This document shows, one piece after another, positions 5,574 to 24,263 of a stretch of 32,000 nt of DNA (position 1 is the first letter of the stretch; the number at the start of each line of letters is the position of its first letter). The translations under genes were made by a program, and so were the position numbers. The notes under the pieces were generated by a model, which was given only the letters and a program-made list of their open reading frames with translations, ran no database searches and was not told the origin of the DNA. Source of the DNA: Candidatus Saccharimonadota bacterium (GTDB taxonomy: Bacteria; Patescibacteriota; Saccharimonadia; Saccharimonadales; Saccharimonadaceae). The DNA lies in the NCBI GenBank assembly GCA_039920285.1, contig JBDSDX010000001.1, positions 30,001 to 62,000 on the forward strand, given 5' to 3'.

Positions 5574-6491
5574 ATGTATATGTCCGAATTAATCCTGGAT
5601 TACATCGAACACCTTGAAGTTGAAGGTGGTCGGTCTGCGAAAACTGCCGAGAACTATCGTCTTTATCTTGAACGTTTTGTTGAATTTACTGAAGATATTA
5701 AAGTTGAAAACATCACCAGCGAAGTTATTCGTAAATATCGTTTGTGGCTCAATCGCTACAAAAACGACAGTGATGGCGAGCTCGCGACAATCACCCAATC
5801 CTATCATCTCATCGCACTTCGTGGCTTCCTTGGCTATTTATCACAACGAGATATTCCGACGCTCGCACCAAACAAGATTACCTTACCGAAAGTCTCTCGA
5901 AAACAAGTTACCTTCCTTCACTACGACGAAGTGCAGCGCCTCATTGGCGTTATTGATATAGCTAGCGAACCGGGTTTACGTGACCGCTCGATCATTGAAT
6001 TGTTATTCTCGAGTGGCCTCCGTGTCTCTGAATTAATCAATCTCAATCGAGATCACGTCAACACAAAACGACGCGAGTTTATGGTCCGCGGTAAAGGACA
6101 AAAGGACCGCCCAATCTTTATTAGCGAATCGGCCGCTAGCTGGGTTGACCGTTACCTCGACGCTCGTCAAGATACCTTGCCTCCCCTATTTTTGAGCTAC
6201 AGTAAAAATAATATCGCCAGTACCAGTGGTGATTATCGACGACTCACTGCCCGTAGCGTACAGCGCATGGTCTCACAATATGCACGCTTGGCTGGTATCA
6301 CAAAGCATGTTAGCCCACACACCATGCGTCACAGCTTTGCAACAGATTTACTTATGAATGGTGCCGACATTCGCAGTGTTCAAAGCATGCTTGGTCATAG
6401 CAATATTAGTACTACCCAAGTGTACACACACGTGACCGATGAGCACCTTAGAGAGGTCTACGAAAAGTTTCATAGCGAAGCTGACGATTAA
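5574..6491 (+). CDS. tyrosine site-specific recombinase, XerC/XerD family
   Basis: 305 aa. It has an N-terminal SAM-like core-binding domain (YIEHLEVEGGRSAKTAENYRLYLERF). Catalytic residues are readable as R in GLRVSEL, HTMRHSFAT and LGHSNISTTQVYTHV. The start may be the second ATG at 5580. Confidence 0.85.
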   Translation: MYMSELILDYIEHLEVEGGRSAKTAENYRLYLERFVEFTEDIKVENITSEVIRKYRLWLNRYKNDSDGELATITQSYHLIALRGFLGYLSQRDIPTLAPNKITLPKVSRKQVTFLHYDEVQRLIGVIDIASEPGLRDRSIIELLFSSGLRVSELINLNRDHVNTKRREFMVRGKGQKDRPIFISESAASWVDRYLDARQDTLPPLFLSYSKNNIASTSGDYRRLTARSVQRMVSQYARLAGITKHVSPHTMRHSFATDLLMNGADIRSVQSMLGHSNISTTQVYTHVTDEHLREVYEKFHSEADD

Positions 6492-7700
6492 TTAGGGCGT
6501 GCACGGAACGGGATTATATGTTGGATAGTCGGCTGCTACGTCAGTCAACGAGAAGTCTTTACACAAGTTACCAGTAGTATCAATTTCAGCATCTGGGTAT
6601 GGGAACGTCGTGTCGATCAATTCGACGCGAGTCTTCACACGGCGAAATAAGTCGTTCGCACGACCTGTTGAATCAATCTCTGGTTGGACACCGTGGAATG
6701 GCACTGGAACCGTACTCGATGCACCGTTCGTCATAGTGACACGAAAGTGAGTTGCACTATAAAATGGCGTCAAGCGGAGATATGCAGTTCGGTCGCCACC
6801 CGTCACAGGGTTTGGTAGTGTCAGCTTGGCACTACATGCGAAACCACCAGCAGCCAAAGTGTCTTCACAATGAATTGGCAATGGTGCATCAGCAGCAACC
6901 TTAGCGGTTTGACGTTTGTCATACGTGGTAAATGAACGGCTCAACGCGGTCACATTCGATGTTGGATATAAGAACAAAGTGTTTGCATTACTTAGCACAT
7001 CGCCACCTGAGTTAACATTGCTGTTAAATTGATCGAGTGTAAACGATGAACCAAATTGCATAAACTGCGCACGCATAACTGCAGGACGACCCGATGGCCA
7101 AGTAGTCGTCTTATATAATGACTGGCCAGTACTCACACCCTCGAGACTCACTGTTTTCGTGGTATTAGTTGTACTGATGTCATCGAGACTATACCATTCG
7201 ACGGTCACCGTATCAAAAGTTGCGCCACCGGCATACAACGGCACGATACGCGATTGGTAGGCACTCAATGTTCCGAGATAGTCAGGTGTATCAAGTGCAA
7301 TTTTTACACACGTATAGGCTTGGTCTAATTTAGCGTCGGTCGTGCCGTTACTTGTTTGCTGAATCGACACTTCTCCCGCAGGGTCGGTCACGACATTACC
7401 TAGGCGGAGCGCGTCGTTACAGGCAGCGGCATTGATTTGGGCAGCCAATGCTGTACAGGCGCCAGCTCCAGTGGCACAAACATTTTGATAATTCAAAAGT
7501 GCACGCTTGGCATCCTCGACACCAGCTTGAGACGAGTCGTAAGCACTCTGCGAAAGGTCAGCATTGCTGGCCTGGGTCTGATCTTTAATCATAAGACGCA
7601 GGAAACTAACGGTAACAATTGTAATGAGAAGTGTTGCGAACAAAACGACGAACAATGAGACGGCTCCGGACTGACGATTGGTTGCGCTTATGCTTTTCAT
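6492..7700 (-). CDS. PilX-like pilus-associated protein (last gene of the pilus locus)
   Basis: 402 aa. N-terminus RQSGAVSLFVVLFATLLITIVTVSFLRLM...SQSAYDSSQAGVEDAKRAL resembles the PilX N-terminal domain, with a hydrophobic helix but no Glu5. The C-terminal IDSTGRANDLFRRVKTRVEL matches the PilX-type STGR..R motif. It has 8 Cys and sits directly after three minor pilins. Confidence 0.55.
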   Translation of the reverse strand: MKSISATNRQSGAVSLFVVLFATLLITIVTVSFLRLMIKDQTQASNADLSQSAYDSSQAGVEDAKRALLNYQNVCATGAGACTALAAQINAAACNDALRLGNVVTDPAGEVSIQQTSNGTTDAKLDQAYTCVKIALDTPDYLGTLSAYQSRIVPLYAGGATFDTVTVEWYSLDDISTTNTTKTVSLEGVSTGQSLYKTTTWPSGRPAVMRAQFMQFGSSFTLDQFNSNVNSGGDVLSNANTLFLYPTSNVTALSRSFTTYDKRQTAKVAADAPLPIHCEDTLAAGGFACSAKLTLPNPVTGGDRTAYLRLTPFYSATHFRVTMTNGASSTVPVPFHGVQPEIDSTGRANDLFRRVKTRVELIDTTFPYPDAEIDTTGNLCKDFSLTDVAADYPTYNPVPCTP

Positions 7701-7704
7701 AGTA

Positions 7705-8418
7705 CTAGTTAACCCTATTCCCTGCCCTTAGGACAAGAGTAAATTGTTGAATTGAACAATATGCCAGATCAGCTTGGAGATCTCCAGGAGGACGACACGC
7801 GGTTTGTGTGGCGTTCAATGCAGTCAAATCGTTCGTCCCAATTGTGTACGTGACGCTGTAGAGACGTTGGCCCGTACTCGCATCGTAGGCATTCGCTCCT
7901 GACGATACATCAAATTGGTGAATCGTGAGATTGCGATCACCTACTTTCAATAGTTCATATGGTGCGTCGGCGACTGCGATCGTTTTATAAGCATTCGGAT
8001 TGAGACAATAATTTCCACCACTATCATTAACCCGAACAAAGTGAACGACAGTGCCGTCAGCTAATTTTGCGAGAGTCGCCCCATTCGCGACAATATCTTT
8101 TCCATAATTCCAAATGTATGAATACTGACCCATACACAGTTGGCCCCCCGTTGCTCGACCACCATTAGCACTCGTGACGTAGCGCTGGTCTGTTGCGACC
8201 AATGAGAATGATTCGCTCGAAGTAAAGTCACGGCTAAATTCAGTGCTAAGTGTTCGGCCAGCTTCATTTACCTCTTTGAGTGTCGTGCCACGGTTGTAGA
8301 TGTTTCCAATTTGAATAATCGTCATCGCGATCGCGAGCAATAGCACCGCGATAAATGACATCGCTAGCACGAGTTCAATGAGAGTAAATCCCTCTTGTTT
8401 ATTAGCCTTGTGGTTCAT
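7705..8418 (-). CDS. minor (pseudo)pilin with prepilin-type N-terminal cleavage/methylation motif
   Basis: 237 aa. MNHKANKQEG|FTLIELVLAMSFIAVLLLAI has a class III signal with Gly-1, Phe+1 and Glu+5. Confidence 0.8.
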   Translation of the reverse strand: MNHKANKQEGFTLIELVLAMSFIAVLLLAIAMTIIQIGNIYNRGTTLKEVNEAGRTLSTEFSRDFTSSESFSLVATDQRYVTSANGGRATGGQLCMGQYSYIWNYGKDIVANGATLAKLADGTVVHFVRVNDSGGNYCLNPNAYKTIAVADAPYELLKVGDRNLTIHQFDVSSGANAYDASTGQRLYSVTYTIGTNDLTALNATQTACRPPGDLQADLAYCSIQQFTLVLRAGNRVN

Positions 8419-9019
8419 ATAACCTCACGATTGTTCCTAACGTCATTGGGACGCTCAGTCCCACACTGTCCCAACAAGCACGGATATGAAAATCAATATA
8501 GCCACTTGATGACTTGAGCGCTTCAACCCAGATACCATCAGCAGATTGGAAAGTATTTCCAGTACCGTAGGTCAGTTGCGAGAAACTAGTGGCTAACTTG
8601 AGAGAGGATACTGCTTTGTAATACACGGCATTACGTGGGTCAACAGCAAATGCACCGTTCTGGTGAGTTGTCGGGCAGGTCGCCCCAACATTGAAATCAG
8701 ATGTGTTGGTGTTATTGATAGTGACAATATCACGGTGCATCTTGTTCCACTCTTCGGCTGGAGAAGTGACGTTATCTGTTTCGTCAAAAGTAATGCCTGG
8801 TTGATAGACGTTGACGTATGAGTCGTGCATAAATCGAAGTGTTTCAGCCTGAGCATCGATTTGCTGACGGACTAATGAGATTTCAAGTGAACGTTGTGAA
8901 GCAGCAGTTCCCTGGTTCATGATCGCCAGTGAACCAACAACAACTGAACTAAAGACTGCGACGGCAAACAGCACTTCAATAAGTGTGTCGCCGCGTTCAT
9001 TTTTTAGACGTTTTAACAT
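8402..9019 (-). CDS. minor pilin-like protein with atypical prepilin motif
   Basis: 205 aa. MLKRLKNERG|DTLIEVLFAVAVFSSVVVGSL keeps Gly-1 and Glu+5 but has Asp rather than Phe/Met at +1. It overlaps both neighbouring pilin genes. Confidence 0.7.
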   Translation of the reverse strand: MLKRLKNERGDTLIEVLFAVAVFSSVVVGSLAIMNQGTAASQRSLEISLVRQQIDAQAETLRFMHDSYVNVYQPGITFDETDNVTSPAEEWNKMHRDIVTINNTNTSDFNVGATCPTTHQNGAFAVDPRNAVYYKAVSSLKLATSFSQLTYGTGNTFQSADGIWVEALKSSSGYIDFHIRACWDSVGLSVPMTLGTIVRLYEPQG

Positions 9020-9843
9020 TGGAGTGAATACTGCCCATCTCCGCGAGTACCGGTCAACCCATCGATATATGCATTAGACCTGGTTTCGACAGAACTTGGT
9101 CCTGATGCGGCCGCGTAGATATAGATTGACTGATCTGATCCGAGAATTGAACCGTTTGAATCAATGCAGAGCGTCCTTGAACCCTGTTTACCCGGTGCGG
9201 TCACACCAGCAACGATCATCGCTTTCAATGTTGTCGGGCTTGGGTCAGCTGGCACAATGTCGCTCGTAAAAGTGTAGGTCACCCCAGTTTCTGGTGAACG
9301 TATGAAAAGCATAGCAATTGAACGGGAACTTCCTGAAGGTTTACTGCCTTGGCCCAGCGTTGGCCACGCAATGCGTGCACCCCATTCAAGTTGTGAATCG
9401 TCTTTCGTGTCGCTCGCGAGATTATAATTATAACTATTCGCCATTTTCGAGACATCAGTATCACCAGGAACAGCTGCCGGTGGGTTAGATAGCTTTCTTG
9501 CGGTCACACTATACGCGGTAATGTCAGAATCAACGATCGTCACATAGCGACCGACTAGTTCACAATCACTTTGCCCGACAGGCACACCATCCGTTGGAAT
9601 CGACGTCGCTATCGTTGATCCATTCGCATCACAGGTCCAACCACTGTCACGACCATTTCGGACACTGGAAAGTTCAGCATATTGACCTTGAAGAAATGAC
9701 TTAAAGGTTTCGACTGAGTCTTTGTACCGCTGAATTCCGATAGTAGCGCCAGTCCCCGCCAAGAGAGAGACAATCAAAATACCGCTGATTCCTAGAAACA
9801 GCATTGTTTCGATGATCGTGAAGCCGTGTGAACGATTGCCCAT
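9013..9843 (-). CDS. minor pilin with prepilin-type N-terminal motif
   Basis: 276 aa. MGNRSHG|FTIIETMLFLGISGILIVSLL has a class III signal with Glu+5. Confidence 0.8.
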   Translation of the reverse strand: MGNRSHGFTIIETMLFLGISGILIVSLLAGTGATIGIQRYKDSVETFKSFLQGQYAELSSVRNGRDSGWTCDANGSTIATSIPTDGVPVGQSDCELVGRYVTIVDSDITAYSVTARKLSNPPAAVPGDTDVSKMANSYNYNLASDTKDDSQLEWGARIAWPTLGQGSKPSGSSRSIAMLFIRSPETGVTYTFTSDIVPADPSPTTLKAMIVAGVTAPGKQGSRTLCIDSNGSILGSDQSIYIYAAASGPSSVETRSNAYIDGLTGTRGDGQYSLQC

Positions 9844-13736: not shown

Positions 13737-15500
13737 TTATGCCGTATCTGACGTGACGCGGTTAACTTCCTCTATTGTCGTGAGTCCGGAGAGTGCCTTA
13801 AGGTACCCATCCTGACGCATCGTAATCATTCCTTGTGACACTGCAAGTCGCTGAATCTGTCCGCTTGTGGCGTGATCAATGATAAGTTTTTGAATATCAG
13901 TGTTCACATCCATGACTTCGTAGATACCGGCACGACCGCTGTAACCATGAGGAGTTTGAGGAGTATCAATACCTCTTACCAAAGTATAAGCGCTTTGGTC
14001 CGCCAGGGGAAGGTCTTTGTAGCCTAAATCTTGTGAAACCTTCGCAACGTCTGCTGCAGTTTTCGGCAAAAGATGACCAATAGTTGCCTTAATGTTCTGT
14101 GTTTCAATCGGTGTTGACTGATAGGTCTCCCGTTTATTTGAAACGCGACGCACCAAACGCTGACCAATAATCGTATTAACCGTACTTGCGATCAAGAATG
14201 GTTCAATATCCATATCGAGCAAACGCGGCAAGACACCGGCAGCGCTATTGGTGTGAAGTGTACTAAAGACAAGGTGTCCCGTCAGGGCGGCCTGGACTGC
14301 CAGTGCTGCGGTCTCGCCGTCACGGATCTCTCCTACCATCACGACGTCAGGGTCCTGACGCAGAATTGAACGAAGACCATTGGCGAACGTTAATCCAACG
14401 TCGGCGTTGACCTGAATTTGATTGACGCCTTCCATTTTGTACTCAACTGGGTCTTCGAGTGTGACGATATTGACGGTGTCATTCTTAATTTCTTTGATCA
14501 ACGCGTAGAGACTTGTCGACTTACCTGATCCAGTTGGTCCAGACGTCAGCACCATTCCGTTTGGTCGTTTCACACCGCGACGAATGACACGGAGCGCGCG
14601 TCCCGCGTAGCCCATTTCTTCAATATCAAATGAGTTACCCGTTTTATCAAGTAGACGAATGACAATTTGTTCACCCCAAACAACTGGACTGATGGCAATA
14701 CGAAGGTCAACTTCTTTGTTGGCGATTTTAACGGTAAATTGACCATCCTGAGGGACACGGTGTTCGTCAATTTTTAGGTTCGCAAGAATTTTTACACGAC
14801 TCACAAGCGCTGGTTCAATACTCTTTGGTAGCTGCATAATCTCACGCAACACACCGTCGACGCGACAACGAATTTTGAGTGCATTTTCGAGTGGTTCGAT
14901 GTGGATATCACTGGCACGAGACTTGATAGCGTATTCCAAAATTTTGCTCAGTGCCTGACTGATCGGCGAATCTTGAACAATCGTTTTAACATCACTGGCC
15001 TCTTCGGCTTTCGCTTCTTCGACTGAAACTTCAGCGGCTTTGTCGACGCTCGAAAGGTCGGTACGATATTGATCCAATACATGGCGGACACCGGCCTCTG
15101 AGGCCATAAACACCTTGAGCGGACGTTGAATACGATTGGCCAAATAATCGACTGCCTGTACGTTGTTAGCATCGATCATTGCAACCGCAAGACGGTTCTG
15201 TACCTCTGCAAGAGGGACTGCCATGAAGCGTTCAGCGATATCTTCCGGTAATAGTCCGAGGATGTTTTGATCAATTAATGTGTTCGTTAAGTTAACGTAA
15301 GGAACGCCTGAGACTTGAGCAATTGCGTGGGTCAACAATTCATCATCGACGATTGCTTGTTCAGTGAGCAGACTAAAGAGTGGTTTGCTGTTTTTGATTG
15401 CCTCAGCTTCGACTGCCTGAAGGACACTTGAAGACACTAGTCCCTCGTCAACGAGTAACTTGATGAGCTTCCCTTGGATGTCATCAGTCAATAAAGCCAT
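13737..15500 (-). CDS. pilB: type IV pilus assembly (extension) ATPase, GspE/PilB family
   Basis: 587 aa. N-terminal MshEN/T2SSE_N-like domain, Walker A GPTGSGKSTS, and RQDPDVVMVGEIRD. SD TAAGGA lies 7 nt upstream of the ATG. Confidence 0.9.
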   Translation of the reverse strand: MALLTDDIQGKLIKLLVDEGLVSSSVLQAVEAEAIKNSKPLFSLLTEQAIVDDELLTHAIAQVSGVPYVNLTNTLIDQNILGLLPEDIAERFMAVPLAEVQNRLAVAMIDANNVQAVDYLANRIQRPLKVFMASEAGVRHVLDQYRTDLSSVDKAAEVSVEEAKAEEASDVKTIVQDSPISQALSKILEYAIKSRASDIHIEPLENALKIRCRVDGVLREIMQLPKSIEPALVSRVKILANLKIDEHRVPQDGQFTVKIANKEVDLRIAISPVVWGEQIVIRLLDKTGNSFDIEEMGYAGRALRVIRRGVKRPNGMVLTSGPTGSGKSTSLYALIKEIKNDTVNIVTLEDPVEYKMEGVNQIQVNADVGLTFANGLRSILRQDPDVVMVGEIRDGETAALAVQAALTGHLVFSTLHTNSAAGVLPRLLDMDIEPFLIASTVNTIIGQRLVRRVSNKRETYQSTPIETQNIKATIGHLLPKTAADVAKVSQDLGYKDLPLADQSAYTLVRGIDTPQTPHGYSGRAGIYEVMDVNTDIQKLIIDHATSGQIQRLAVSQGMITMRQDGYLKALSGLTTIEEVNRVTSDTA

Positions 15501-15510
15501 GGATCAATCC

Positions 15511-15762
15511 TTACTGACCTGTCGGTGGAGTTGTCGTTTGGGTCGATTCTGAACCAAGCGAAATACTCCAGGTTGGGTTGATAGCATTCTCATTGAAGAT
15601 AGTTGGACTCGGTTCTTCGATGGTCGAGCTAATTGGGTCAATCGTCTGAACATTCACGGATTCGGTCGTCCCTTCACCGAAGATAGACTTCGTGACAAAG
15701 AAAGCGACAAGAATGCCTACTGAGGCAATGAGAACAATCATCGCAATATCACTTCGTTTCAT
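15511..15762 (-). CDS. small single-pass membrane protein (occupies the position PilP has in diderm loci; no recognisable similarity)
   Basis: 83 aa with one TM helix (IAMIVLIASVGILVAFFV) and a Thr/Ser/Pro-rich tail. Its ATG overlaps the upstream stop as TAATG. Confidence 0.5.
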   Translation of the reverse strand: MKRSDIAMIVLIASVGILVAFFVTKSIFGEGTTESVNVQTIDPISSTIEEPSPTIFNENAINPTWSISLGSESTQTTTPPTGQ

Positions 15763-16457
15763 TATGGTTTCACCGCCTTATCATGTAATTCAACCGTCTT
15801 GGCTGGCTCATAGAAAGCACGTCCCTGCACACTCATGAGTTGTTGTGAGCCTTGGTTTTCAATACGAAGTGACGTAATGTCGATAGCGCGGATCGAACGC
15901 TCAAGGTTATTCAGAACCTGCTTTAGGGCTGCTTGGTCACCGATAACTGAGAACTGGAAAGTAATCTGGTTAGAACTTACTGAGTCGCTGAGTGAAGCGT
16001 CTTGAACAGCCGCATCACCAGACACTTCAACTCCCACCACTGGATCAACCTGAAGTGATTCGAGTGATAGCCCAGGAATACCAGCAAGTAATTTATTCTG
16101 TAACGATGCACCGAGCGCTAACGAGTTAGCATCTGCTGGAAGTGCGTCAAGAATTACCTGAAGTGCTTGGTCATCAGGGTTTGCCTTTACCTTTGCAAGA
16201 GCTGCATTGGCATCAAGTACTCGGACTTGATCTTTTAAGGCACTGACGACACTATTGTTAGCCTGCAAGGTTGCAACGGTCTTCTCTTTCTCAGATAGTA
16301 CCTTTTCATTGAAGAACAATTTTTGCGCCAAGAAATAAGACACAACCAAAGCGCTTCCGACGATGACGGATGCAGCAGCAATCCAAAGGAGCATCATTCG
16401 ATTAGTTTTACTAATCTGTGTGCGCTTGCGTAGTGCGGTTTCTTTTTGTGGTTCCAT
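15762..16457 (-). CDS. pilO: PilO-like pilus alignment protein
   Basis: One TM helix (MMLLWIAAASVIVGSALVVSYFLA), then a coiled-coil segment (EKEKTVATLQANNSVVSALKDQVRVLD) and a C-terminal alpha/beta domain. The start is revised to the ATG at 16457 (MEPQKE...), 1 nt after the pilN stop. The track's longer ORF (to 16532) overlaps pilN by 74 nt. Confidence 0.5.
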   Translation of the reverse strand: MEPQKETALRKRTQISKTNRMMLLWIAAASVIVGSALVVSYFLAQKLFFNEKVLSEKEKTVATLQANNSVVSALKDQVRVLDANAALAKVKANPDDQALQVILDALPADANSLALGASLQNKLLAGIPGLSLESLQVDPVVGVEVSGDAAVQDASLSDSVSSNQITFQFSVIGDQAALKQVLNNLERSIRAIDITSLRIENQGSQQLMSVQGRAFYEPAKTVELHDKAVKP

Positions 16458-16458
16458 A

Positions 16459-17187
16459 CTAATTGCTCTCCAAATCTTTGGCCGCATCAGTAAAGATGCT
16501 TCGTGGAATTCCGATATACGAGTCAGTTGCATTACCTTGACCTGAAATCTTTATAGTCAGGCCGTCGATTTTCGGTGAGAAGAGCTCTTCAGCGTAGGTA
16601 AAGGTCATCGTGAAACGCAGAACTTTTGTGCCGCTGGTGTTTTCACCAAAGCTCACGTCTGAAGTGCTAATTTCACTGCCGAGTGCGACTGTTTGATCTT
16701 CTTTGTCATCTTTGTTTAGTTTGTAATTGATCACGGCATTGTTAATCGTCTTCTTGAAGACTTCGAGTGAGTCGTACCCACTGGTTTGACCTTCGATTGA
16801 AATCTTTTTAGTCGACGCATCGATAGAGACACCTGAAACTTGTACTTGGTTTTCAGCAACGGGTAGAATCGCGAGCAACATATCGAATAAACGTGAATCA
16901 AGTTTTTTCTCGTCGTTCAGCGCAGAAATCTTCGTCAACTGATTTTGAATCGTCAGCACTTTTGAAAGATCTTCAACGCCTGAAAGTTGAGTACTTCCCT
17001 TCTTGATATTGTCGTCGTCCACAACACCACGAACGGTCTGGACACCAAAGACATAGACTGACAATATAACGACGATCGCGATAGCGACGATACCAACAAC
17101 AATGGAGGTTGAAATAACGACAGCTCGAACCCGTTCAGCCTTGATCAGCTCTTGCTTGACGTCAGGGACAAGGTTAATTTCAATCAT
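16459..17187 (-). CDS. pilN: PilN-like pilus alignment protein
   Basis: 242 aa. The N-terminus MIEINLVPDVKQ resembles the PilN INLLP motif that binds PilM, and is followed by one TM helix. It has an ATGA overlap with pilM. Confidence 0.6.
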   Translation of the reverse strand: MIEINLVPDVKQELIKAERVRAVVISTSIVVGIVAIAIVVILSVYVFGVQTVRGVVDDDNIKKGSTQLSGVEDLSKVLTIQNQLTKISALNDEKKLDSRLFDMLLAILPVAENQVQVSGVSIDASTKKISIEGQTSGYDSLEVFKKTINNAVINYKLNKDDKEDQTVALGSEISTSDVSFGENTSGTKVLRFTMTFTYAEELFSPKIDGLTIKISGQGNATDSYIGIPRSIFTDAAKDLESN

Positions 17188-18230
17188 GATCGGTTTTCCC
17201 TTTGCGCGAGACCGATAACAGTGGCGAATTCAGAGGCAACGGTCAGGAGCTGCTGTTGGTCTTGTTGAGAGACGTTCACTTTTTGCCACGGGTTCGCAAT
17301 GCTTGAAGGAATACCCGTCTTAGCAGTCACGTATTCACCAAATTGTGGAACAATCGCACTAAAGCCAGACAACAAGATGCCACCGACAGGAGTATTTGGG
17401 TAACGAGTTTGGAAGAATTTCACTGACTTGGTCAGCTCGGTTGCAAAGTTATCAAGGGTTGATTCAATCGCACGGTAAACTTGTCCTTCGAGACGGTCTG
17501 GCGCCAGACCAAATTTCAAGATGAATTGACGCGCTTGGTCTTCTTGAACGTTCAAGTTCTGGACTGCAGCTTTGATGAGTGAACGAATGCCTGTCGGGAT
17601 CGTACGAACCAATCGAGGACTGCCACCAAAAGTAATCGCCAGATCAGTTGATTGTTCACCGACATCAATGATGAGACGACCGTCAGGAATACCTTCGGGT
17701 AACAGTGAACGAACCATCGCCAGAGGGTCTGGTTCGGCAGCGATAACGTTGAGACCGAGGCCTTCAATAAATTCGAGTCGCTCTTCAGCGTAGGCATTAG
17801 CTGTACTTGCCAGCAAAACTTCGACTTGTTTTGGATCATGTAAAGAGGTGCCAAGGAGCGCCCAGTCGACTTTTGCTTCGTTGACCGCCATTGGAATATA
17901 CTGGTCAGCTTGGTACTTCAAAGTACTGCGTAGCTCTGCTTCTGGCATTGCTGGCATTTCGATAACTGTTGTAAAAGTTTTACTTGAAGGTAATCCGATG
18001 ACGACATTCTTGGCTTTAATGCCACTTTGGCCAACAGCAGTCATGATCACTTCACCAAGTCGACGTTGGCTTTCAGGTGAGGCACTGCTTGCGGTTTTTT
18101 CGTCTAAAGGCGCATATCCAAAGTGTTGGAGGACCCAACTGTTAGGACCTGTCGAAGAAAGCTGTACCACTCGCACAGCATTTGTTCCTATATCTAGCGC
18201 AAAGAAGTCGCCCACGCCACGTAATGCCAT
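17184..18230 (-). CDS. pilM: actin-like ATPase PilM
   Basis: FALDIGTNAVRVVQL phosphate-1 motif with FtsA/PilM-like fold length. The track start is a TTG at 18251. The ATG at 18230 (MALRGVG...) has TAAGGGA 5 nt upstream, so I prefer it. Confidence 0.85.
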   Translation of the reverse strand: MALRGVGDFFALDIGTNAVRVVQLSSTGPNSWVLQHFGYAPLDEKTASSASPESQRRLGEVIMTAVGQSGIKAKNVVIGLPSSKTFTTVIEMPAMPEAELRSTLKYQADQYIPMAVNEAKVDWALLGTSLHDPKQVEVLLASTANAYAEERLEFIEGLGLNVIAAEPDPLAMVRSLLPEGIPDGRLIIDVGEQSTDLAITFGGSPRLVRTIPTGIRSLIKAAVQNLNVQEDQARQFILKFGLAPDRLEGQVYRAIESTLDNFATELTKSVKFFQTRYPNTPVGGILLSGFSAIVPQFGEYVTAKTGIPSSIANPWQKVNVSQQDQQQLLTVASEFATVIGLAQRENRS

Positions 18231-18240
18231 ATTGTCCCTT

Positions 18241-18270
18241 ATTATACGCAAAGCATAAGCGTAAAAGCAA
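18241..18270 (-). promoter_or_regulatory. candidate internal promoter in front of pilM
   Basis: The minus strand reads TTGCTT-18 nt-TATAAT in the short gap between the upstream large gene and pilM. This is a match by eye only. Confidence 0.3.
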
Positions 18271-18281
18271 GGTCATTTACT

Positions 18282-20168
18282 CTAATAGCGTGGTGGTAAT
18301 TCTTGAGAGTACACCGTTTGGACCCGGCCGGTCGTTGAAGCACGATTTATTGCCCAGAAATATGCATCTGGTCGAAGATTGAACACCTCTGCTGGATCGC
18401 CTGCCCCAGCCCCTTGAGTTGCTCCAGCTGTTCGGTGCAAGTATACTTTTTTTGCCATAACAGGGCCGTTAATAGTCAGTGTATTCGTACATAGTGCCGA
18501 ACTGAGATTGATCATATCTCCTGAATCAGCAGCATCTCGACACGTATTAAGAGTTCCCTCGGCGCCATTCGCGATGAGCCATGCGTCGACTCGCGTCACA
18601 TTACTTCGAATGTTGATGTGATTGGCAATAATAACAAGCTGCGGAATGTCACTAAGTGCCGTGAATGGACCATTGTCGTAGGTGATATTTCCAAGAATAT
18701 TGACCGTTGCTGTCGGTGCATTAATCACGATCCATTGACCCTTGCCTAGTCCTGTTGTGGTCAGATTAATAACTGCGTTGGTGTCAGTTTTATATACGCC
18801 CTGTTTACCAGACGCGCCAAGATCAACTGTTCCTGTTAGCTTTGGCGCAGCGCTAGTGAGAAAACGATTTGAGATATCAGGAATAGTTCGATTGGTATCA
18901 AAGTTGCCGAGGCTCGATTGATCCACACACTTTCCACCCGGGCTTTTTGCTTTTGTGTTCGCAAATGTCAAAAGTGAGACTGCGCAATCGGTTGTTTTGG
19001 ATATACCTCCCGCATATCCAGAACCTGAGGCTAAGCCCTTAATCGCTCCGCTTGCGACGACGCCATATTCGGCCCATGAGCCGTATTGTTTTGTGATTTG
19101 ATTTGTGACACCAACTGAAATCAATGAAACCATAGAGACGGAACCAGCAAAAGGCCTTCCCACTAATACATCACTCCCCAATACTTGGATCTTCGGCTTT
19201 TTGGTCACCGTAATACAGAACGGTGCGCTATAGCGCCAATCTGTCGTTTCAAAACTATACGTTTTAACTGAAAGTCCGAAACATATTCTTGTCCCCACTG
19301 GCCAGTCGGCGATTGATTGTGTGCCCACGTTATTCGTCAAGTTTGATGTGCCGACGCCAAAGATTGTTCCCGTTGCAGTTTTTACGTCCACAGCGTCTTT
19401 ATTACCGTAATATGTCACTGGCGCAATGCCTCCAGTTCCTGTGAGAGGAACAGAACCACCTGGATCGACACGGAATTTCGTGACACGCCACTCAACACCA
19501 TTACTACTCGTTGGGCCGTCGTTCTTCACCGTTGGAGTAAGCTTTACATTATCTGTTGCTGCATCGCTCACACTCGGGGTACCCGTAATACTCGGCGTAA
19601 GATTAAAATTGTAGCGCGTGTAACAGAACCACGAAAGGTTACTACTTCCGGACCATGTGTAGCCGTTATTTTGCCCAAGAGCGGCTGCTTCATTAAAGGC
19701 AGTGTGTACAGCTGGCCATGAATAGCCTCGATCGTTCACTAGTGTACTTGGCAGAGGGTTAGATGCATCTTGAGCGGGATAATAATTAGTACCGCCTCCA
19801 AAATAGCGGCTAATGTCATCGTTATCACCACTACTCGAACCGATCGTCCAAGACCTCGTGTCGCGCGAACCGTCGGTTGCGACCAGTACGTACGCAAAGA
19901 ATCCCCCAGCAGTAGCACAACCTCGTACGTGTGTTTGTGTCTGTTTAAAAACATTCCAAATAGGAACGTCGTCAGAATTGGTCGTATAGTAGCGCCACGT
20001 CGCGCCATAACAAGTACTAAAACCGTCACCACACCCCGGACTTCCGCCGGTCGGAGAATCACCTGCTCCGGCAGAGGCAAAACGAGGCATCAAAACAACA
20101 GCAAATACTGCGAATAATACGACAGCTAGTGAATAGAAAAGCGGCCTAACCCGATACCCTTGTATCAT
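18282..20168 (-). CDS. secreted Cys-rich protein of unknown family, paralog B
   Basis: 628 aa. Signal peptide ends FASA|GAG. It has 10 Cys, all positionally conserved with paralog A. The middle segment is Ig/CARDB-like (LTPSITGTP...TPTVKNDGPT...EWRVTKFRV) and the C-terminal half is beta-rich, ending RVQTVYSQELPPRY. The ATG overlaps the upstream stop as ATGA. Confidence 0.8.
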   Translation of the reverse strand: MIQGYRVRPLFYSLAVVLFAVFAVVLMPRFASAGAGDSPTGGSPGCGDGFSTCYGATWRYYTTNSDDVPIWNVFKQTQTHVRGCATAGGFFAYVLVATDGSRDTRSWTIGSSSGDNDDISRYFGGGTNYYPAQDASNPLPSTLVNDRGYSWPAVHTAFNEAAALGQNNGYTWSGSSNLSWFCYTRYNFNLTPSITGTPSVSDAATDNVKLTPTVKNDGPTSSNGVEWRVTKFRVDPGGSVPLTGTGGIAPVTYYGNKDAVDVKTATGTIFGVGTSNLTNNVGTQSIADWPVGTRICFGLSVKTYSFETTDWRYSAPFCITVTKKPKIQVLGSDVLVGRPFAGSVSMVSLISVGVTNQITKQYGSWAEYGVVASGAIKGLASGSGYAGGISKTTDCAVSLLTFANTKAKSPGGKCVDQSSLGNFDTNRTIPDISNRFLTSAAPKLTGTVDLGASGKQGVYKTDTNAVINLTTTGLGKGQWIVINAPTATVNILGNITYDNGPFTALSDIPQLVIIANHINIRSNVTRVDAWLIANGAEGTLNTCRDAADSGDMINLSSALCTNTLTINGPVMAKKVYLHRTAGATQGAGAGDPAEVFNLRPDAYFWAINRASTTGRVQTVYSQELPPRY

Positions 20169-20686
20169 TCAAACACCTTTATCGGTACCTTCTTATAATA
20201 TTCATCGGCCTTTATTGTATCGCCAATAACGTCATAGGCACGAGCGAAATGGGTATCGATTTTATACTTATATGCGTCACTATCTCCATATTTCGCTTCG
20301 AGAGGAATGAGAATTGTATCAATTGCTTCTTGCGGTTTGTCGGTATTAATAAGCAATATTGCTTTCGCAAGACGGGCATCAACACTATAGCTTTCGTTCC
20401 CGCTCTTGTCGGCTTCAGTAATCTGAGAATCAATAATTTTTATTGCTTGCTGCGTTGATTGTGTATCGTCGGCCGAGAGAAGTTTTGCGACTTGATCTTG
20501 CGTCTTATTAAATGTATCTCGATATGCCGTGCCCGACTTTTCAATATTTGTCGTACCTTGATCTTCCTTGGTTGAGCTAAAATACCCAGCAAAGTACGCA
20601 TAGGTTGCACCTCCGACCACCAGTACAATAAGAATGATGCTCGCGATAATGGTTTTTTTATGGGTAATACGCATATTCATAGTCAT
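20165..20686 (-). CDS. membrane-anchored TPR-like helical-repeat protein, paralog B
   Basis: One N-terminal TM helix (IIASIILIVLVVGGATYAYFAGYF) and a helical-repeat domain (ARLAKAILLINTDKPQEAIDTIL, FARAYDVIGDTIKADEYYKK). The start is revised from the track's 20761 to the ATG at 20686, which overlaps the upstream stop as TAATG. The Met at 20680 aligns best with the paralog A start. Confidence 0.7.
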   Translation of the reverse strand: MTMNMRITHKKTIIASIILIVLVVGGATYAYFAGYFSSTKEDQGTTNIEKSGTAYRDTFNKTQDQVAKLLSADDTQSTQQAIKIIDSQITEADKSGNESYSVDARLAKAILLINTDKPQEAIDTILIPLEAKYGDSDAYKYKIDTHFARAYDVIGDTIKADEYYKKVPIKVFE

Positions 20687-22578
20687 TAAAATCGTGGTGG
20701 TAATTCTTGAGAGTACACCGTTTGCACACGTCCAGTAGCTGAAGCGCGCGCTGTAGCCCATAGATAGGCGTCTGGTCGAAGGTTAAATATCTCTGCAGGG
20801 TCACCTGCCCCAGCACCTTGTGTTGCTCCGACTGTTCGATGGAGATAGAGCTTCTTCGCCATGACAGGACCGTTAATAAACAATTGTTTATTACACGTGA
20901 CGGAACTTAGATTAATCATGTCGATGGTATCAACCACATTTCGACAGGTGTTTACTACCCCTTCAGTGCCGTTCGCAACTAACCACGCATCGATATTTGT
21001 AACCGTACTTTCAATGTTAATGCGACTAGCAATAATGACAAGTTGTGGAATATCATCGATTGAATTCAACGTTACGGGTGAGTACTTGATGTCTCCTGAA
21101 ATAACGACAGTTGCTTTTGGTGCGTTGATCACCACCCACTGTTTTTTCGCGAGCGTTGTTGCACTCAGTGTAATCGTCGTCGTACCATCACTTGTATACA
21201 CACCCTGTCGGTTCGATGCGCCAAGATCAATTGTTCCTGTTAGTTTTGGTGTCGTTGCGGTCGTCGGAAATCGGGTTGAGATATCAGGAATGGTTCTTTT
21301 CGTATCAAACTTGCCAAGGCTTGATTGATTTGTACACCGACCACCTGGACTTGTGGTCACTGTATTTGAAAATGTCAGCAACGCAACAGCGCAATCGGTC
21401 GTCGTCGATACTCCCCCAGCGTAGCCTGAAGCTGAAGCAAGTCCGTTAACAGCCCCGCTCGCCGCGACGCCGTACTCACTCCATGAGCCGTATTGTTTTG
21501 TGATTTGGTTTGTGACGCCGACTGAAATCAGCGAGGTAAGAGCAGTTGAACCTGGGAAAGGTCTCCCCACAAGTACATCACTCCCCCAGACTTGAATTTT
21601 TGGTTTTTTCGTAATCGTCACGCAAAATGGTGGACTGTAGCGCCAATTCCCCGACGACTGAGAATAGGGTTTTACCGAAAGCCCAAAGCATATCCTCGTC
21701 CCCAGTGGATAGTCACCGACTGACTGTTTCGCGACTTCACCAGCAAGATTCGTCGTCGTCACCCCAAACGTTCTTCCTGTCACGACCTTCACGTCAGTCC
21801 CGTCTTTATTGCCATAAAAACTTATCGGAGTACCACTTCCAGTACTGCCTCCGGGAACTGCTATCCCTGGTTCAACTCGAAATTTCGTAATACGCCATTC
21901 AATGGAGCTACTATTCGTTGGTCCCGCGTTCTTTACCGTCGGCGTTACAGTAATGTCATTCGTACTACCATCAACGTCTTTTGGTGTCCCCGTGATTAAA
22001 GGCGTGAGATTGAAATCAAGCCCTCGATAACAGAACCATCCGAGTGAACTCCCACCATCCCATGAATACCCTGCGTTTTGTCCCAGAGATTTAGTTTGCT
22101 CAAATGCCTTTTGGGCAGAGAACCAACTGTACATTCCGTCGCCAGGGTTAACAGGAAGCGCATCACCAGGATCGCTGTAGAGGTAGTATTTTGTCCAACC
22201 GCCAAAAAACTTACTTCGGTTACCTGAGTCCCCATCAACTGGACCAATTTTCCATGACCTCACTAGTGAGCCGTCGTTAGGTGAATATCGATTCACCAAG
22301 ACATAAGCAAAGAATCCACCGGTTGATCCACAACCTGTGACTGTCGTATATCCTGAACCAACATTCCTAATATTGTACGCATTGGAGCTTGTCCGGTAAT
22401 ATCGCCAAACTGCCCCGGTACAAGTGCTGTAATTATACGCCGCACAACCGTTTGACCCACCGCCACCGCCTGGCCCAGCACCCGCTGACGCAGAGTGAGG
22501 TGTTAATAAAACCGCCAATATAGCAAAAAGCCCAATGACTATTGAGTACATCGACACAGAGCGGATACGAAGACGCAT
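20686..22578 (-). CDS. secreted Cys-rich protein of unknown family, paralog A
   Basis: About 630 aa. Signal peptide ends SASA|GAG. Domain order and the 10 Cys are the same as in paralog B, and it ends RVQTVYSQELPPRF. The ATG at 22578 overlaps the upstream stop as TGATG. The track start at 22581 is a TTG. Confidence 0.8.
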   Translation of the reverse strand: MRLRIRSVSMYSIVIGLFAILAVLLTPHSASAGAGPGGGGGSNGCAAYNYSTCTGAVWRYYRTSSNAYNIRNVGSGYTTVTGCGSTGGFFAYVLVNRYSPNDGSLVRSWKIGPVDGDSGNRSKFFGGWTKYYLYSDPGDALPVNPGDGMYSWFSAQKAFEQTKSLGQNAGYSWDGGSSLGWFCYRGLDFNLTPLITGTPKDVDGSTNDITVTPTVKNAGPTNSSSIEWRITKFRVEPGIAVPGGSTGSGTPISFYGNKDGTDVKVVTGRTFGVTTTNLAGEVAKQSVGDYPLGTRICFGLSVKPYSQSSGNWRYSPPFCVTITKKPKIQVWGSDVLVGRPFPGSTALTSLISVGVTNQITKQYGSWSEYGVAASGAVNGLASASGYAGGVSTTTDCAVALLTFSNTVTTSPGGRCTNQSSLGKFDTKRTIPDISTRFPTTATTPKLTGTIDLGASNRQGVYTSDGTTTITLSATTLAKKQWVVINAPKATVVISGDIKYSPVTLNSIDDIPQLVIIASRINIESTVTNIDAWLVANGTEGVVNTCRNVVDTIDMINLSSVTCNKQLFINGPVMAKKLYLHRTVGATQGAGAGDPAEIFNLRPDAYLWATARASATGRVQTVYSQELPPRF

Positions 22579-23099
22579 CAATCAAATCCTTTTACTGGTA
22601 TCTTGTTAAAGTATTCTGCTGATTTCTCAGTGTTACCCAAAACTTCGTAAGCTCGGCTAAAATAACCGTAAATATTATATTTATAAGATTCATTGTCACC
22701 ATACTTCTGATCAAGCGGTGTCAGAATAGTATCAATTGCCTCCTGTGATCGATTGGTATCAATATATAAACTAGCCTTTGCCAAATACGCGTCGACACTG
22801 TAGCTGTCGTTTCCACTTCTGTCGGCTGAAGCGATCTGAGAATCAACGATCGCCGTCGCCTGTTGAATCGATTTCTCGTCACCAGCAGTTACTAACGTTG
22901 TGACCTGAGTTTGATTTTGATTCAAGCTCTTCTTATACGTCGTGCTTGTTTTAGTCGGATCGGTTGTCCCAGTCGATGTATCCTTGGCTGGAGCAGTAAA
23001 ATAGCCTGCATAATAGGCATACGCACCACCGCCTCCAAGAAGAACAACCACGACGATTGCCGTGATAATAATCTTTTTGCGAGCGATTCTAATGGCCAT
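22578..23099 (-). CDS. membrane-anchored TPR-like helical-repeat protein, paralog A
   Basis: 173 aa. MAIRIARKK is followed by a TM helix (IIITAIVVVVLLGGGGAYAYYAGYF), a Thr-rich linker and helical repeats (AYLAKASLYIDTNRSQEAIDTIL, FSRAYEVLGNTEKSAEYFNK). It is the first gene of the co-directional block. Confidence 0.75.
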   Translation of the reverse strand: MAIRIARKKIIITAIVVVVLLGGGGAYAYYAGYFTAPAKDTSTGTTDPTKTSTTYKKSLNQNQTQVTTLVTAGDEKSIQQATAIVDSQIASADRSGNDSYSVDAYLAKASLYIDTNRSQEAIDTILTPLDQKYGDNESYKYNIYGYFSRAYEVLGNTEKSAEYFNKIPVKGFD

Positions 23100-23125
23100 G
23101 CGTACCCCGTGTTATCTTAAGCTTG

Positions 23126-23154
23126 AGTATAATATACCGCTTATGCGAATACAA
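23126..23154 (-). promoter_or_regulatory. candidate sigma70-type promoter for the duplicated module / pilus super-operon
   Basis: The minus strand reads TTGTAT-17 nt-TATACT in the 81-nt divergent gap, about 26 nt upstream of the first ATG (23099). Confidence 0.3.
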
Positions 23155-23162
23155 CTGACATC

Positions 23163-23171
23163 TGTTAAAAT
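23163..23171 (+). promoter_or_regulatory. candidate extended -10 promoter for ychF
   Basis: TGTTAAAAT (TGn + TAAAAT) ends 9 nt before the ychF ATG. No SD lies between them. Confidence 0.3.
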
Positions 23172-23180
23172 AAGAACCAT

Positions 23181-24263
23181 ATGAGTCTCTCTATTGGCAT
23201 CGTCGGTCTCCCAAACGTTGGTAAGTCTACCCTCTTTAACGCTCTCACGGATAACAACATCCTAGCGGCTAATTATCCATTCGCGACAATCGAACCGAAT
23301 ACCGGCATTATTGCCGTGCCTGACACACGTCTTGGTGTGCTTGAAGATATGTATAAAGCAGAGAAAGTCATCCCTGCGACAGTGACGTTTGTTGATATCG
23401 CGGGCCTCGTTGCTGGTGCGAGTAAAGGCGAAGGACTCGGTAATAAGTTCCTCGCGAACATTCGTGAGTGTGATGCTATCGTGCACGTGGTGCGCGCCTT
23501 TGAAGATCCAGATGTTATCCATACCTCTGATCAAATCAATCCAAAGCACGATATCGAGACAATCAACACTGAGCTTATCTTGGCCGACCTTCAATCTCTG
23601 GAACGTCACCTGCCGAAAATTGAGCGAGAAGCAAAGGCTAATGCCACCGCTCGCGCTGCTGTTGATCAAGTGAAGGCGCTCCAAAACTCTCTCGAGCAAG
23701 GAACACTTATCTCAGAACTTGGTAGCGTGAACACAGAACTTATTCAAGAACTACAACTACTGAGTGCCAAACCAGTCATCTACGTCTTCAATGTCGACGA
23801 GCATACCCTTGGTAATACAGAGAAGAAGGTATCACTCGCTGCGTTGGTTGCGCCTGCTGAGAGTATCTTCATCTGCGCTAAGCTCGAACAAGACCTCCGC
23901 GGTCTCACAAAGTCAGATGCCGAAGAATTACTCTCTGCATATGATGTGTCTGAATCAGGTCTCGCCCAACTCGCCCGCGTGGCGTACGCGACGTTAAAGC
24001 TACAAAGCTACCTCACCGCTGGACCAAAAGAAGTTCGTGCTTGGACTATTCGCCAAGGTAATACTGCCCCGCAAGCCGCTGGAGTCATTCATACTGATTT
24101 TGAGAAAGGCTTTATCGCCGCCCAAATCGTCGACTTTGATGATTTAATTGAGGCTGGGAGCGAAGTAGCAGCCAAGAGCGCTGGTAAGATTCGCACTGAA
24201 GGTCGCGACTATGTGATGCGTCCTGGTGACGTAGTCGAGTTCCGATTCAACGTCAGCAAATAG
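23181..24263 (+). CDS. ychF: ribosome-binding ATPase YchF (Obg-family P-loop)
   Basis: 360 aa. G1 motif GIVGLPNVGKSTLFNALT, the central coiled-coil insert, and a C-terminal TGS-like domain (RAWTIRQGNTAPQAAGVIHTDFEKGFI). Confidence 0.9.
   Translation: MSLSIGIVGLPNVGKSTLFNALTDNNILAANYPFATIEPNTGIIAVPDTRLGVLEDMYKAEKVIPATVTFVDIAGLVAGASKGEGLGNKFLANIRECDAIVHVVRAFEDPDVIHTSDQINPKHDIETINTELILADLQSLERHLPKIEREAKANATARAAVDQVKALQNSLEQGTLISELGSVNTELIQELQLLSAKPVIYVFNVDEHTLGNTEKKVSLAALVAPAESIFICAKLEQDLRGLTKSDAEELLSAYDVSESGLAQLARVAYATLKLQSYLTAGPKEVRAWTIRQGNTAPQAAGVIHTDFEKGFIAAQIVDFDDLIEAGSEVAAKSAGKIRTEGRDYVMRPGDVVEFRFNVSK

Follow-up and report, generated by a model that had tools for sequence, protein, structure and literature searches.

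A tandemly duplicated gene pair beside pilM forms a conserved, uncharacterized accessory cassette of the type IV pilus locus in Saccharibacteria

In the genome of a Candidatus Saccharimonadota bacterium, two tandem copies of one gene pair lie directly before pilM, at the head of a type IV pilus block. The stretch of DNA analyzed, referred to here as the window, spans 32,000 nucleotides (assembly GCA_039920285.1, contig JBDSDX010000001.1, positions 30,001 to 62,000 of the forward strand). Each copy of the pair encodes a small membrane-anchored protein with tetratricopeptide repeats (TPRs) and a large secreted protein, and in order of transcription on the minus strand the genes are small1, large1, small2 and large2, followed by a 51-nt gap and pilM. 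The pair is an uncharacterized, Saccharibacteria-specific and strongly conserved accessory cassette of the type IV pilus locus. In the searchable part of the literature on Saccharibacteria pili, transposon sequencing (Tn-seq), cryo-electron tomography (cryo-ET) and genome surveys, we found no description of it. As to function, we favor, tentatively and largely by analogy, an accessory type IV pilus module in which the large protein would be a PilY1-like, non-pilin, Sec-exported adhesin or tip plug and the small protein its dedicated, membrane-anchored TPR chaperone or dock.

The duplication of the pair exceeds chance by far. The two large proteins are 62% identical (632 columns, E = 0) and the two small ones 53% (E = 8e-67), so that the tandem, coupled pair of an uncharacterized family reported in a preliminary description of this DNA is real. 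Identity between large1 and large2 amounts to 48% in the N-terminal head, 66-78% in the solenoid described below and 82% in the tail; the ten cysteines said to be positionally conserved are all aligned (10/10), and the ASA↓GAG signal peptide cleavage site is present in both proteins. The block indeed lies on the strand of pilM and ends about 50 nt before it, the gap to the pilM ATG (18230) measuring 51 nt. Upstream, the divergently transcribed ychF is separated from small1 by an intergenic region of 81 nt. GC content is flat over the block, and nothing suggests a foreign island. The large proteins carry the locus tags ABIP50_00295 and 00305, and small1 carries ABIP50_00310.

The stop/start overlaps on which the coupling was based (TGATG, TAATG and ATGA) can all be read in the sequence, at the small1/large1 (gatTGATGcgt), large1/small2 (tttTAATGact) and small2/large2 (gaATGAtac) junctions, and in the first and third of these the ATG of the large gene overlaps the stop codon of the small one. 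The second overlap is uncertain owing to the choice of start codon: small2 has three in-frame ATGs (20689, 20683 and 20677; MTMNMR...), of which the third could, by homology with small1, be the true start. Coupling is therefore clear-cut only from each small gene to its large partner. A Shine-Dalgarno-like sequence (AAGGA or AAGGTG) lies 5-8 nt ahead of both large genes, within the small gene that precedes each; for large1, the list of open reading frames (ORFs) gives a TTG start one codon ahead of the ATG used here.

Adjacency of the pair to pilM is tight and ancient. To survey the locus we used one genome per GTDB species (219 relatives), and the counts given are those of the best-scoring 78 loci, numbered with the prefix L. 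In 76 of these 78 Saccharibacteria species loci, pilM starts less than 200 nt from the stop codon of the large gene, the gap having a median of 57 nt (range 49-105), and a TPR gene lies upstream of the large gene in 58 of the 65 loci with enough upstream DNA; the linkage to pilus genes thus extends to related genomes. Among relatives at 30-46% identity, six of seven loci are ordered ychF (divergent), TPR gene, large gene, pilM, and two of those six show an independent tandem pair; the first four loci, at 36-46% identity, already had this order. Between ychF and the TPR gene, three loci (L001 5834-7408, L003 5867-7240 and L002 5648-7000) hold an extra gene of 450-524 aa that has no Pfam match and in L002 lies on the opposite strand.

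The gap before pilM is itself conserved. A motif of the form CTTGCTTTTA-N14-GTATAAT occurs in about 70 of the 78 species loci (L001-L085 equivalents), its distance to pilM being fixed. With the pilM ATG as the point of alignment, the 45 nt upstream show striking conservation among species with PilM proteins that are 62-90% identical. Conserved positions comprise CTTGCTTTTA at -41 to -32, GTATAAT at -17 to -11, a purine-rich run at -10 to -6 and CAAT at -4 to -1; in the spacer, a T at -27 and TT at -21/-20 are conserved as well and may constitute a regulator site. The motif is unique in the window and is matched by none of 100 shuffles. It goes uncalled in a sigma-70 scan, its -35 element matching the consensus only at TTG; the evidence for it is cross-species conservation, not consensus score. 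An Rfam search over positions 15000-24000 found no RNA family in the gaps.

Judged by this conservation, pilM very probably has a promoter of its own. A transcript from the motif would start 3-4 nt before the pilM ATG and be nearly leaderless, in which case GAGGG would serve only read-through transcripts from the pair. No terminator was seen in the gap between large2 and pilM, so read-through is plausible; co-transcription of the pair with pilM is possible, not implied. The earlier picture of a pair fused to the front of the pilus operon thus stands as far as conserved adjacency to pilM is concerned, but is weakened by the promoter-like motif in the 51-nt gap.

No characterized family is recognized from sequence for the large proteins, as had been supposed. 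Neither matches Pfam or NCBIfam at E <= 1, and searches of PDB sequences with family profiles returned only a poly-Q artefact (huntingtin) or, with a second profile, nothing. A word-indexed search listed at least 34, then at least 30, relatives of the large protein and at least three of the small one. An exhaustive hidden Markov model (HMM) search of 1.84 billion cluster representatives (50% identity level) yielded 4,677 large-family representatives at E <= 1e-3 and 2,499 at E <= 1e-30. All source names are Saccharibacteria or Patescibacteria, except for three metagenome-assembled genomes labelled as other taxa, in which ychF, the large gene and pilM are nevertheless arranged in the same way. 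The large family is big, unnamed and so far known only from Saccharibacteria-type genomes.

Within this family, conservation is concentrated in the C-terminal two-thirds, while N-termini vary in sequence and length (proteins of 560-1,140 aa). All 178 members read start with a Sec-type (type I, n-h-c) leader, and a prepilin motif or class III signal peptide (G↓FxxxE) occurs in none of them (0/178). At the other end, the invariant terminus noted earlier is borne out: the RVQTVYSQELPPR(Y/F) tail is identical in large1 and large2, and ELPPR[FYL] forms the C-terminal end of 150 of the 178 members. As regards wall or sorting anchors, the large proteins have no hydrophobic segment after ELPPR[FYL], no LPXTG, no C-terminal transmembrane helix and no SLH or LysM domain (Pfam). 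In many relatives (P0041-P0073) a short GYF(T/S/N) or YF.N motif opens the mature protein; large1 and large2 are without it and start, after cleavage, with GAG..GG..GC. Pfam identifies N-terminal extras among 41 long members, namely DUF7507 in five, DUF11 in two and a Ricin-B lectin domain in one, which are typical surface or adhesin modules. Together with the Sec signal peptides and conserved Cys pairs, these modules fit the extracytoplasmic, surface-type role proposed at the outset.

Structure prediction resolves the large protein into modules. The full-length AlphaFold2 (AF2) model has an overall predicted local distance difference test score (pLDDT) of 64.6 and is confident only at residues 180-320 and 430-545. 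The Ig/CARDB-like middle segment proposed from sequence is recovered at residues 180-320 (pLDDT ~90), with residues 181-320 matching the CARDB domain 3idu in Foldseek (probability 1.00, TM-score 0.65). The same segment superposes on the ester-bond adhesin repeat domains 8f9l and 9blo; the Ig-like sandwich is generic and holds one conserved Cys pair (C296/C318). When residues 316-628 of large2 were re-modelled on a 115-sequence alignment, the C-terminal half, previously described only as beta-rich, turned out as a confident beta-solenoid with a short flanking helix (pLDDT 86.5, predicted TM-score 0.87). The last 13 residues, which form the near-invariant tail, are unstructured in the model (pLDDT < 50).

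Against the PDB, Foldseek found nothing for the solenoid at E <= 1e-3; ranking first is 3uyv, an ice-binding protein (E = 0.034), followed by the solenoid of ComZ, a competence pilin of Thermus thermophilus (6qvi_B; E = 0.041, probability 0.89, TM-score 0.38). Among the viral structures of BFVD the top match is DUF3494, again weak, and no relation to tail fibers or tailspikes emerged. On these models the fold class is likely ice-binding-type, membership of any named family being unproven. The statement that the pair contains no known motif accordingly needs qualification: no Pfam or NCBIfam family is found, yet the C-terminal domain probably has an ice-binding-type beta-solenoid fold, as in ComZ and cyanobacterial PilX. 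A solenoid shared with the 402-aa PilX-like pilin of the window was considered and rejected (hhalign probability 0.2%).

Lyases, hydrolases and phage tailspikes are commonly built on right-handed beta-helices too, and the solenoid carries many invariant acidic, basic and aromatic residues (GSWxEY, DIPQ, DAWL, PAExFNLRPDAYLW). PL6 alginate lyases occur among the low-ranked Foldseek matches. The large protein could in principle be an enzyme built on a secreted beta-helix, such as a depolymerase of polysaccharides or the cell wall, that opens the wall of its own cell for the pilus or attacks the host envelope, with the head and Ig-like domain targeting the substrate. We consider this quite improbable, as all lyase or hydrolase matches have E > 3 and probability <= 0.01, no Pfam catalytic family is present, and the top-ranked ice-binding proteins and ComZ are modules that bind and have no enzymatic function.

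The small partner is consistently built as a membrane-anchored TPR protein. A small-family HMM, constructed from ORFs upstream of large genes, recovers the partner in most loci, and its members have in common an N-terminal tail rich in K/R, a single strongly hydrophobic helix, a linker of 30-50 residues and then two to three TPRs. In the 44 of 46 members with a placeable start codon, the N-terminus consists of the tail plus transmembrane helix and has no lipobox; the positive-inside pattern across the 46 members places the TPR domain outside the cytoplasmic membrane. Pfam TPR_2 is detected in 17 of 32 members (best E = 1.6e-12), and the family profile matches consensus-TPR structures with E = 1.7e-69. 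The YfgM-type TPR_21 (PF09976) is found in 7 of 32 members (best E = 1.8e-8) and in neither window copy. Of the features described earlier, the N-terminal helix is borne out, and the TPR-like repeats are clear for the family and sub-threshold in the two window copies (TPR_8, 22.3 bits versus a cut-off of 25.7).

Duplication recurs across the family and is accompanied by exchange of heads. Two large genes are present in 8 of the 78 loci; in the window, L053 and L060 the duplication is lineage-specific, the best match of each paralog being its neighbor, and in L014/L017 it is older. Several paralog pairs align only over their C-terminal ~450 aa, indicating that the head has been replaced. Some loci encode stand-alone secreted proteins of 345-361 aa (L026 4985-6067, L043 5178-6224 and L049 5013-6098; also P0011 and P0020), whose N-terminus matches the heads of the window large proteins (..AGPGGGGGS.GC..YSTC.GAVWRYY..) and whose genes sit between the TPR gene and that of a 565-aa solenoid protein bearing another head. 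The head unit, with or without the Ig-like domain, therefore behaves as a separable module. In L017 (4821-7067) and L028 (2735-3799), a second large gene begins directly behind the first, 44 nt away, and lacks a TPR gene of its own, so the ratio of small to large genes is not always 1:1.

The cassette is not universal. In the gene table of Southlakia epibionticum ML1, EF-P, TlyA, ychF (SEML1_0103, ending at 103880) and pilM (SEML1_0104, starting at 103892) follow one another with nothing between the last two, and the T4P1 genes of this strain are class I essential (PMC10633639 supplement). The description of the TM7x T4P-1 locus lists machine genes and pilins only (PMC11623550). Nanosynbacter has a distant homolog of 1,084 aa elsewhere in its genome, away from the pilus genes; a Southlakia counterpart of that homolog was sought by synteny, and no such gene is present at the corresponding site. 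Since the pair is missing in S. epibionticum, whose pilus is essential, the cassette is accessory and not a core part of the machine. It is kept by environmental lineages and missing in the oral G1 clade.

These genomes bear on the proposal, raised in the preliminary description, of an envelope component in place of a secretin. In this scenario the large protein would form an oligomeric collar or conduit through the wall or outer layer, with the TPR protein as assembly factor, analogous to a secretin with its pilotin (PilQ with PilF, Tgl or TadD). The position at the head of pilMNO, the pairing of a TPR protein with a large beta-protein and the outer layer seen by cryo-ET in a Saccharibacterium (PMC11880426) speak in its favor, as does the lack of a secretin noted earlier, which holds for the larger window ORFs (~130 aa and up) scanned with Pfam, a 67-codon S18-like ORF and overlapping ORFs lying outside that scan. 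Even so, such a part is very unlikely and the proposal disfavored: Pfam, NCBIfam and Foldseek matches include neither a secretin (PF00263) nor an N-domain signature, the partner is transmembrane-anchored and not a lipoprotein, and the pair is missing both from S. epibionticum, in which this pilus locus is functional as well as essential, and from the TM7x locus description (PMC11623550), with the Nanosynbacter homolog unlinked. Moreover, a hypervariable, swappable head and recurrent tandem paralogs are untypical of a conserved channel or structural conduit.

We return to the adhesin or tip plug with its TPR chaperone. A type I signal peptide, a variable N-terminus and a conserved C-terminal domain, a minor-pilin set without PilY1, and solenoid analogues at other type IV pili together favor this assignment. 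The four prepilin-type genes after pilD look like a complete core minor-pilin (priming or tip) set, and no PilY1/PilC homolog occurs in the window. Under this scheme, the small and large proteins would be made in fixed proportion from their overlapping genes, the overlap itself being observed, and the large protein would cross the membrane by Sec and form disulfides, as the observed signal peptide and conserved Cys suggest. The TPR domain, just outside the membrane on its short linker, would hold the newly exported large protein, possibly via the ..ELPPR[FYL] tail. TPR domains typically bind extended peptides; the tail is near-invariant yet unstructured and the partner is a true N-in TPR protein, which makes the tail a candidate docking peptide. 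The constant Ig-plus-solenoid part would then be passed to the minor-pilin priming complex of the same locus and would cap or ride the pilus, while the fast-diverging, swappable head would touch the host bacterium or substrate. Tandem duplication would give one cell two heads on the same constant part.

Several points weigh against this assignment. We infer contact of the large protein with pilins or with the TPR partner by analogy only. The large gene stands before pilM, outside the minor-pilin cluster that is the usual place of PilY1 and ComZ genes; in structure, ComZ and ice-binding proteins are matched weakly (E ~0.03-0.04, TM-score 0.29-0.38); and the many invariant charged residues of the solenoid could equally mark an active site. 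As pilM very probably has its own conserved promoter, it need not be expressed together with the pair, and some arrays hold one TPR gene for two large genes. Linkage is possibly overestimated, because the 78 loci are the best-scoring of 219, and pilM is not adjacent in two of them (L056, which keeps the TPR partner, and L079, which has neither) or beside the Nanosynbacter homolog.

Much of the same evidence would suit a pilus-independent cell-surface adhesin, held at the membrane or wall by its TPR partner and co-located, perhaps co-regulated, with the pilus on account of their common task, host attachment. The Sec signal peptide, disulfide-type Cys, solenoid and an Ig-like domain of the kind seen in the stalks of Gram-positive adhesins (8f9l, 9blo) are all compatible with it, as are the lectin, DUF11 or DUF7507 heads of relatives, the variable head with recurrent duplication, the separate conserved pilM promoter and the unlinked Nanosynbacter homolog. 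We nevertheless think it rather doubtful: a near-universal position within ~57 nt of pilM, in lineages no more than 36-46% identical, is difficult to account for unless the two are functionally tied, no wall anchor (LPXTG, C-terminal transmembrane helix, SLH, LysM; Pfam) is present, and the short linker of the TPR partner (~30-50 residues) is an unlikely tether to the outer surface. Roles other than those considered here are unlikely.

Type IV pili are implicated in the way ultrasmall epibionts of the Candidate Phyla Radiation (CPR) recognize and bind their particular host bacteria, and genetics has so far been done only in oral strains, which lack the cassette. Given its abundance, its tie to the pilus locus and its hypervariable head, the cassette is a concrete candidate for what determines host specificity in environmental Saccharibacteria. 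A bolder version of the pilus assignment, possible yet speculative, is that these bacteria cap their pili with a non-pilin, Sec-exported beta-solenoid protein that the TPR protein loads on the minor-pilin complex via ELPPR[FYL], its head setting which host can be attached. If so, tandem copies and head swapping would be a genomic record of host-range evolution, and with its loss of the cassette the mammal-associated G1 clade would have shifted to recognition by pilins. The large protein would also represent a second, independent recruitment of an ice-binding-type solenoid to the type IV pilus, here as a free secreted protein and not as a pilin insertion. Finally, the conserved motif before pilM offers a handle for studying pilus regulation in this phylum.

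Downstream of the pair, the machine block comprises pilM, pilN-like and pilO-like genes, a gene for an 83-aa transmembrane protein, pilB, pilT, pilC, the major pilin gene, pilD and the four minor-pilin-type genes, and extends to 6492 (Table 1). The 83-aa protein may be PilP-like or an otherwise unnamed machine component; its slot is occupied by a gene of 67-75 aa in L001-L007 and in S. epibionticum (SEML1_0107, scored essential). The 402-aa pilin has no Glu5 and is PilX/GspK-like. Directly after the last minor-pilin-type gene, on the opposite strand (5574-6491, +), lies an XerC/D-type tyrosine recombinase gene, probably a housekeeping one.

Table 1. Features of the duplicated pair and the adjoining pilus locus (window coordinates).
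Feature	Position	Strand	Description
candidate promoter of pair	23126..23154	-	TTGTAT-N17-TATACT, then GGGG Shine-Dalgarno-like; within the 81-nt ychF/small1 region; from sequence only, weak, uncalled by the sigma-70 scan
small1	22578..23099	-	173 aa, type II membrane protein; K/R-rich N-terminal tail, one transmembrane helix (N-in), S/T-rich linker, 2-3 extracytoplasmic TPR repeats; basis: ORF and sequence
large1	20686..22578	-	630 aa counted from ATG, Sec-secreted; signal peptide (..SASA↓GAG), variable head rich in Cys, CARDB-like Ig domain, beta-solenoid of probable ice-binding type, invariant tail ..RVQTVYSQELPPRF
small2	20165..20689	-	174 aa, small1 paralog
large2	18282..20168	-	628 aa, large1 paralog; signal peptide 1-33, head 34-180, Ig-like 181-320, beta-solenoid ~321-600, flanking helix 600-613, tail 614-628 ..RVQTVYSQELPPRY; basis: AF2, Foldseek, alignment
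promoter-like motif	18241..18270	-	TTGCTTTTA-N14-GTATAAT-N10-ATG; in large2-pilM gap, -10 hexamer ending 10 nt before pilM ATG
pilM	17184..18230	-	Pfam PF11104, E = 3e-41; first gene of the pilus machine block
83-aa single-transmembrane protein	15511-15762	-	between the pilO-like gene and pilB
four prepilin-type genes after pilD	6492-9843	-	276 aa (HG↓FTIIE), 205 aa (G↓DTLIE), 237 aa (EG↓FTLIE), 402 aa (G↓AVSLF)

Known systems resemble the pair in part. The Pam donor-strand pili of CPR bacteria comprise two-domain pilins (PamA/B) with a truncated Ig C-terminal domain, encoded at a locus by ATP synthase genes, and PapD-like chaperones (PamC/D) with a C-terminal transmembrane helix (bioRxiv 10.64898/2026.03.03.709456); compared by description only, they were rejected as relatives since architecture, partner type and genomic context differ. 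With the TPR pilotins and assembly factors PilF/PilW, Tgl and TadD the pair has in common that a small TPR protein, its gene lying with those of a pilus system, goes together with a large exported protein rich in beta structure; however, pilotins are outer-membrane lipoproteins acting on secretins, whereas the small partner is transmembrane-anchored without a lipobox, and no secretin was found among the window ORFs scanned. YfgM, a chaperone of the Sec translocon (TPR_21, PF09976), shares with the small partner an N-in transmembrane helix and a small extracytoplasmic TPR-like domain of ~170-200 aa, but it is a general factor, uncoupled from any one client gene, and the window copies do not match PF09976.

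For the large protein, CARDB/Ig-like adhesin stalks provide a likeness through residues 181-320, which superpose on 3idu, 8f9l and 9blo, although Pfam CARDB matches neither protein. Ice-binding (DUF3494) proteins are the top structural match in both PDB and BFVD, a right-handed solenoid with flanking helix being the possible common fold; the matches to 3uyv, 4nu2, 9lhr and viral DUF3494 are weak (E = 0.03-5, TM-score 0.25-0.37), DUF3494 (PF11999) is not matched by the large proteins at E <= 1 or by the 41 long relatives at E <= 1e-3, and the context is an epibiont pilus locus, not cold adaptation. ComZ, the second-best Foldseek match, carries an ice-binding-like solenoid at the pilus tip (PMC6561018), and all cyanobacterial PilX proteins do so too, where it is proposed to replace PilY1 (bioRxiv 10.64898/2026.02.12.705559). 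In both, a solenoid of this general fold is thus associated with a type IV pilus, yet they are pilins, with a prepilin leader, an alpha1 helix and the solenoid inserted in the pilin fold, whereas members of the large family start with a Sec signal peptide and lack a pilin fold, and the match is weak.

PilY1, a non-pilin protein associated with the tip of type IVa pili, primes and caps the pilus, its conserved C-terminal domain binding minor pilins and PilO (PMC7541494). It differs from the large protein in sequence and fold, being a beta-propeller and not a beta-solenoid; neither large protein matches PilY1 (PF05567, Neisseria_PilC) in Pfam at E <= 1, and no PilY1 structure is among the Foldseek matches. 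The large gene also lies before pilM and not in the minor-pilin operon, comes with a dedicated TPR partner and is dispensable in some lineages. What the large protein shares with PilY1/PilC is the overall design: a type I signal peptide, a variable N-terminus and a conserved C-terminal domain, a tie to the pilus locus with its core minor-pilin set, and a proposed role as adhesin or plug.

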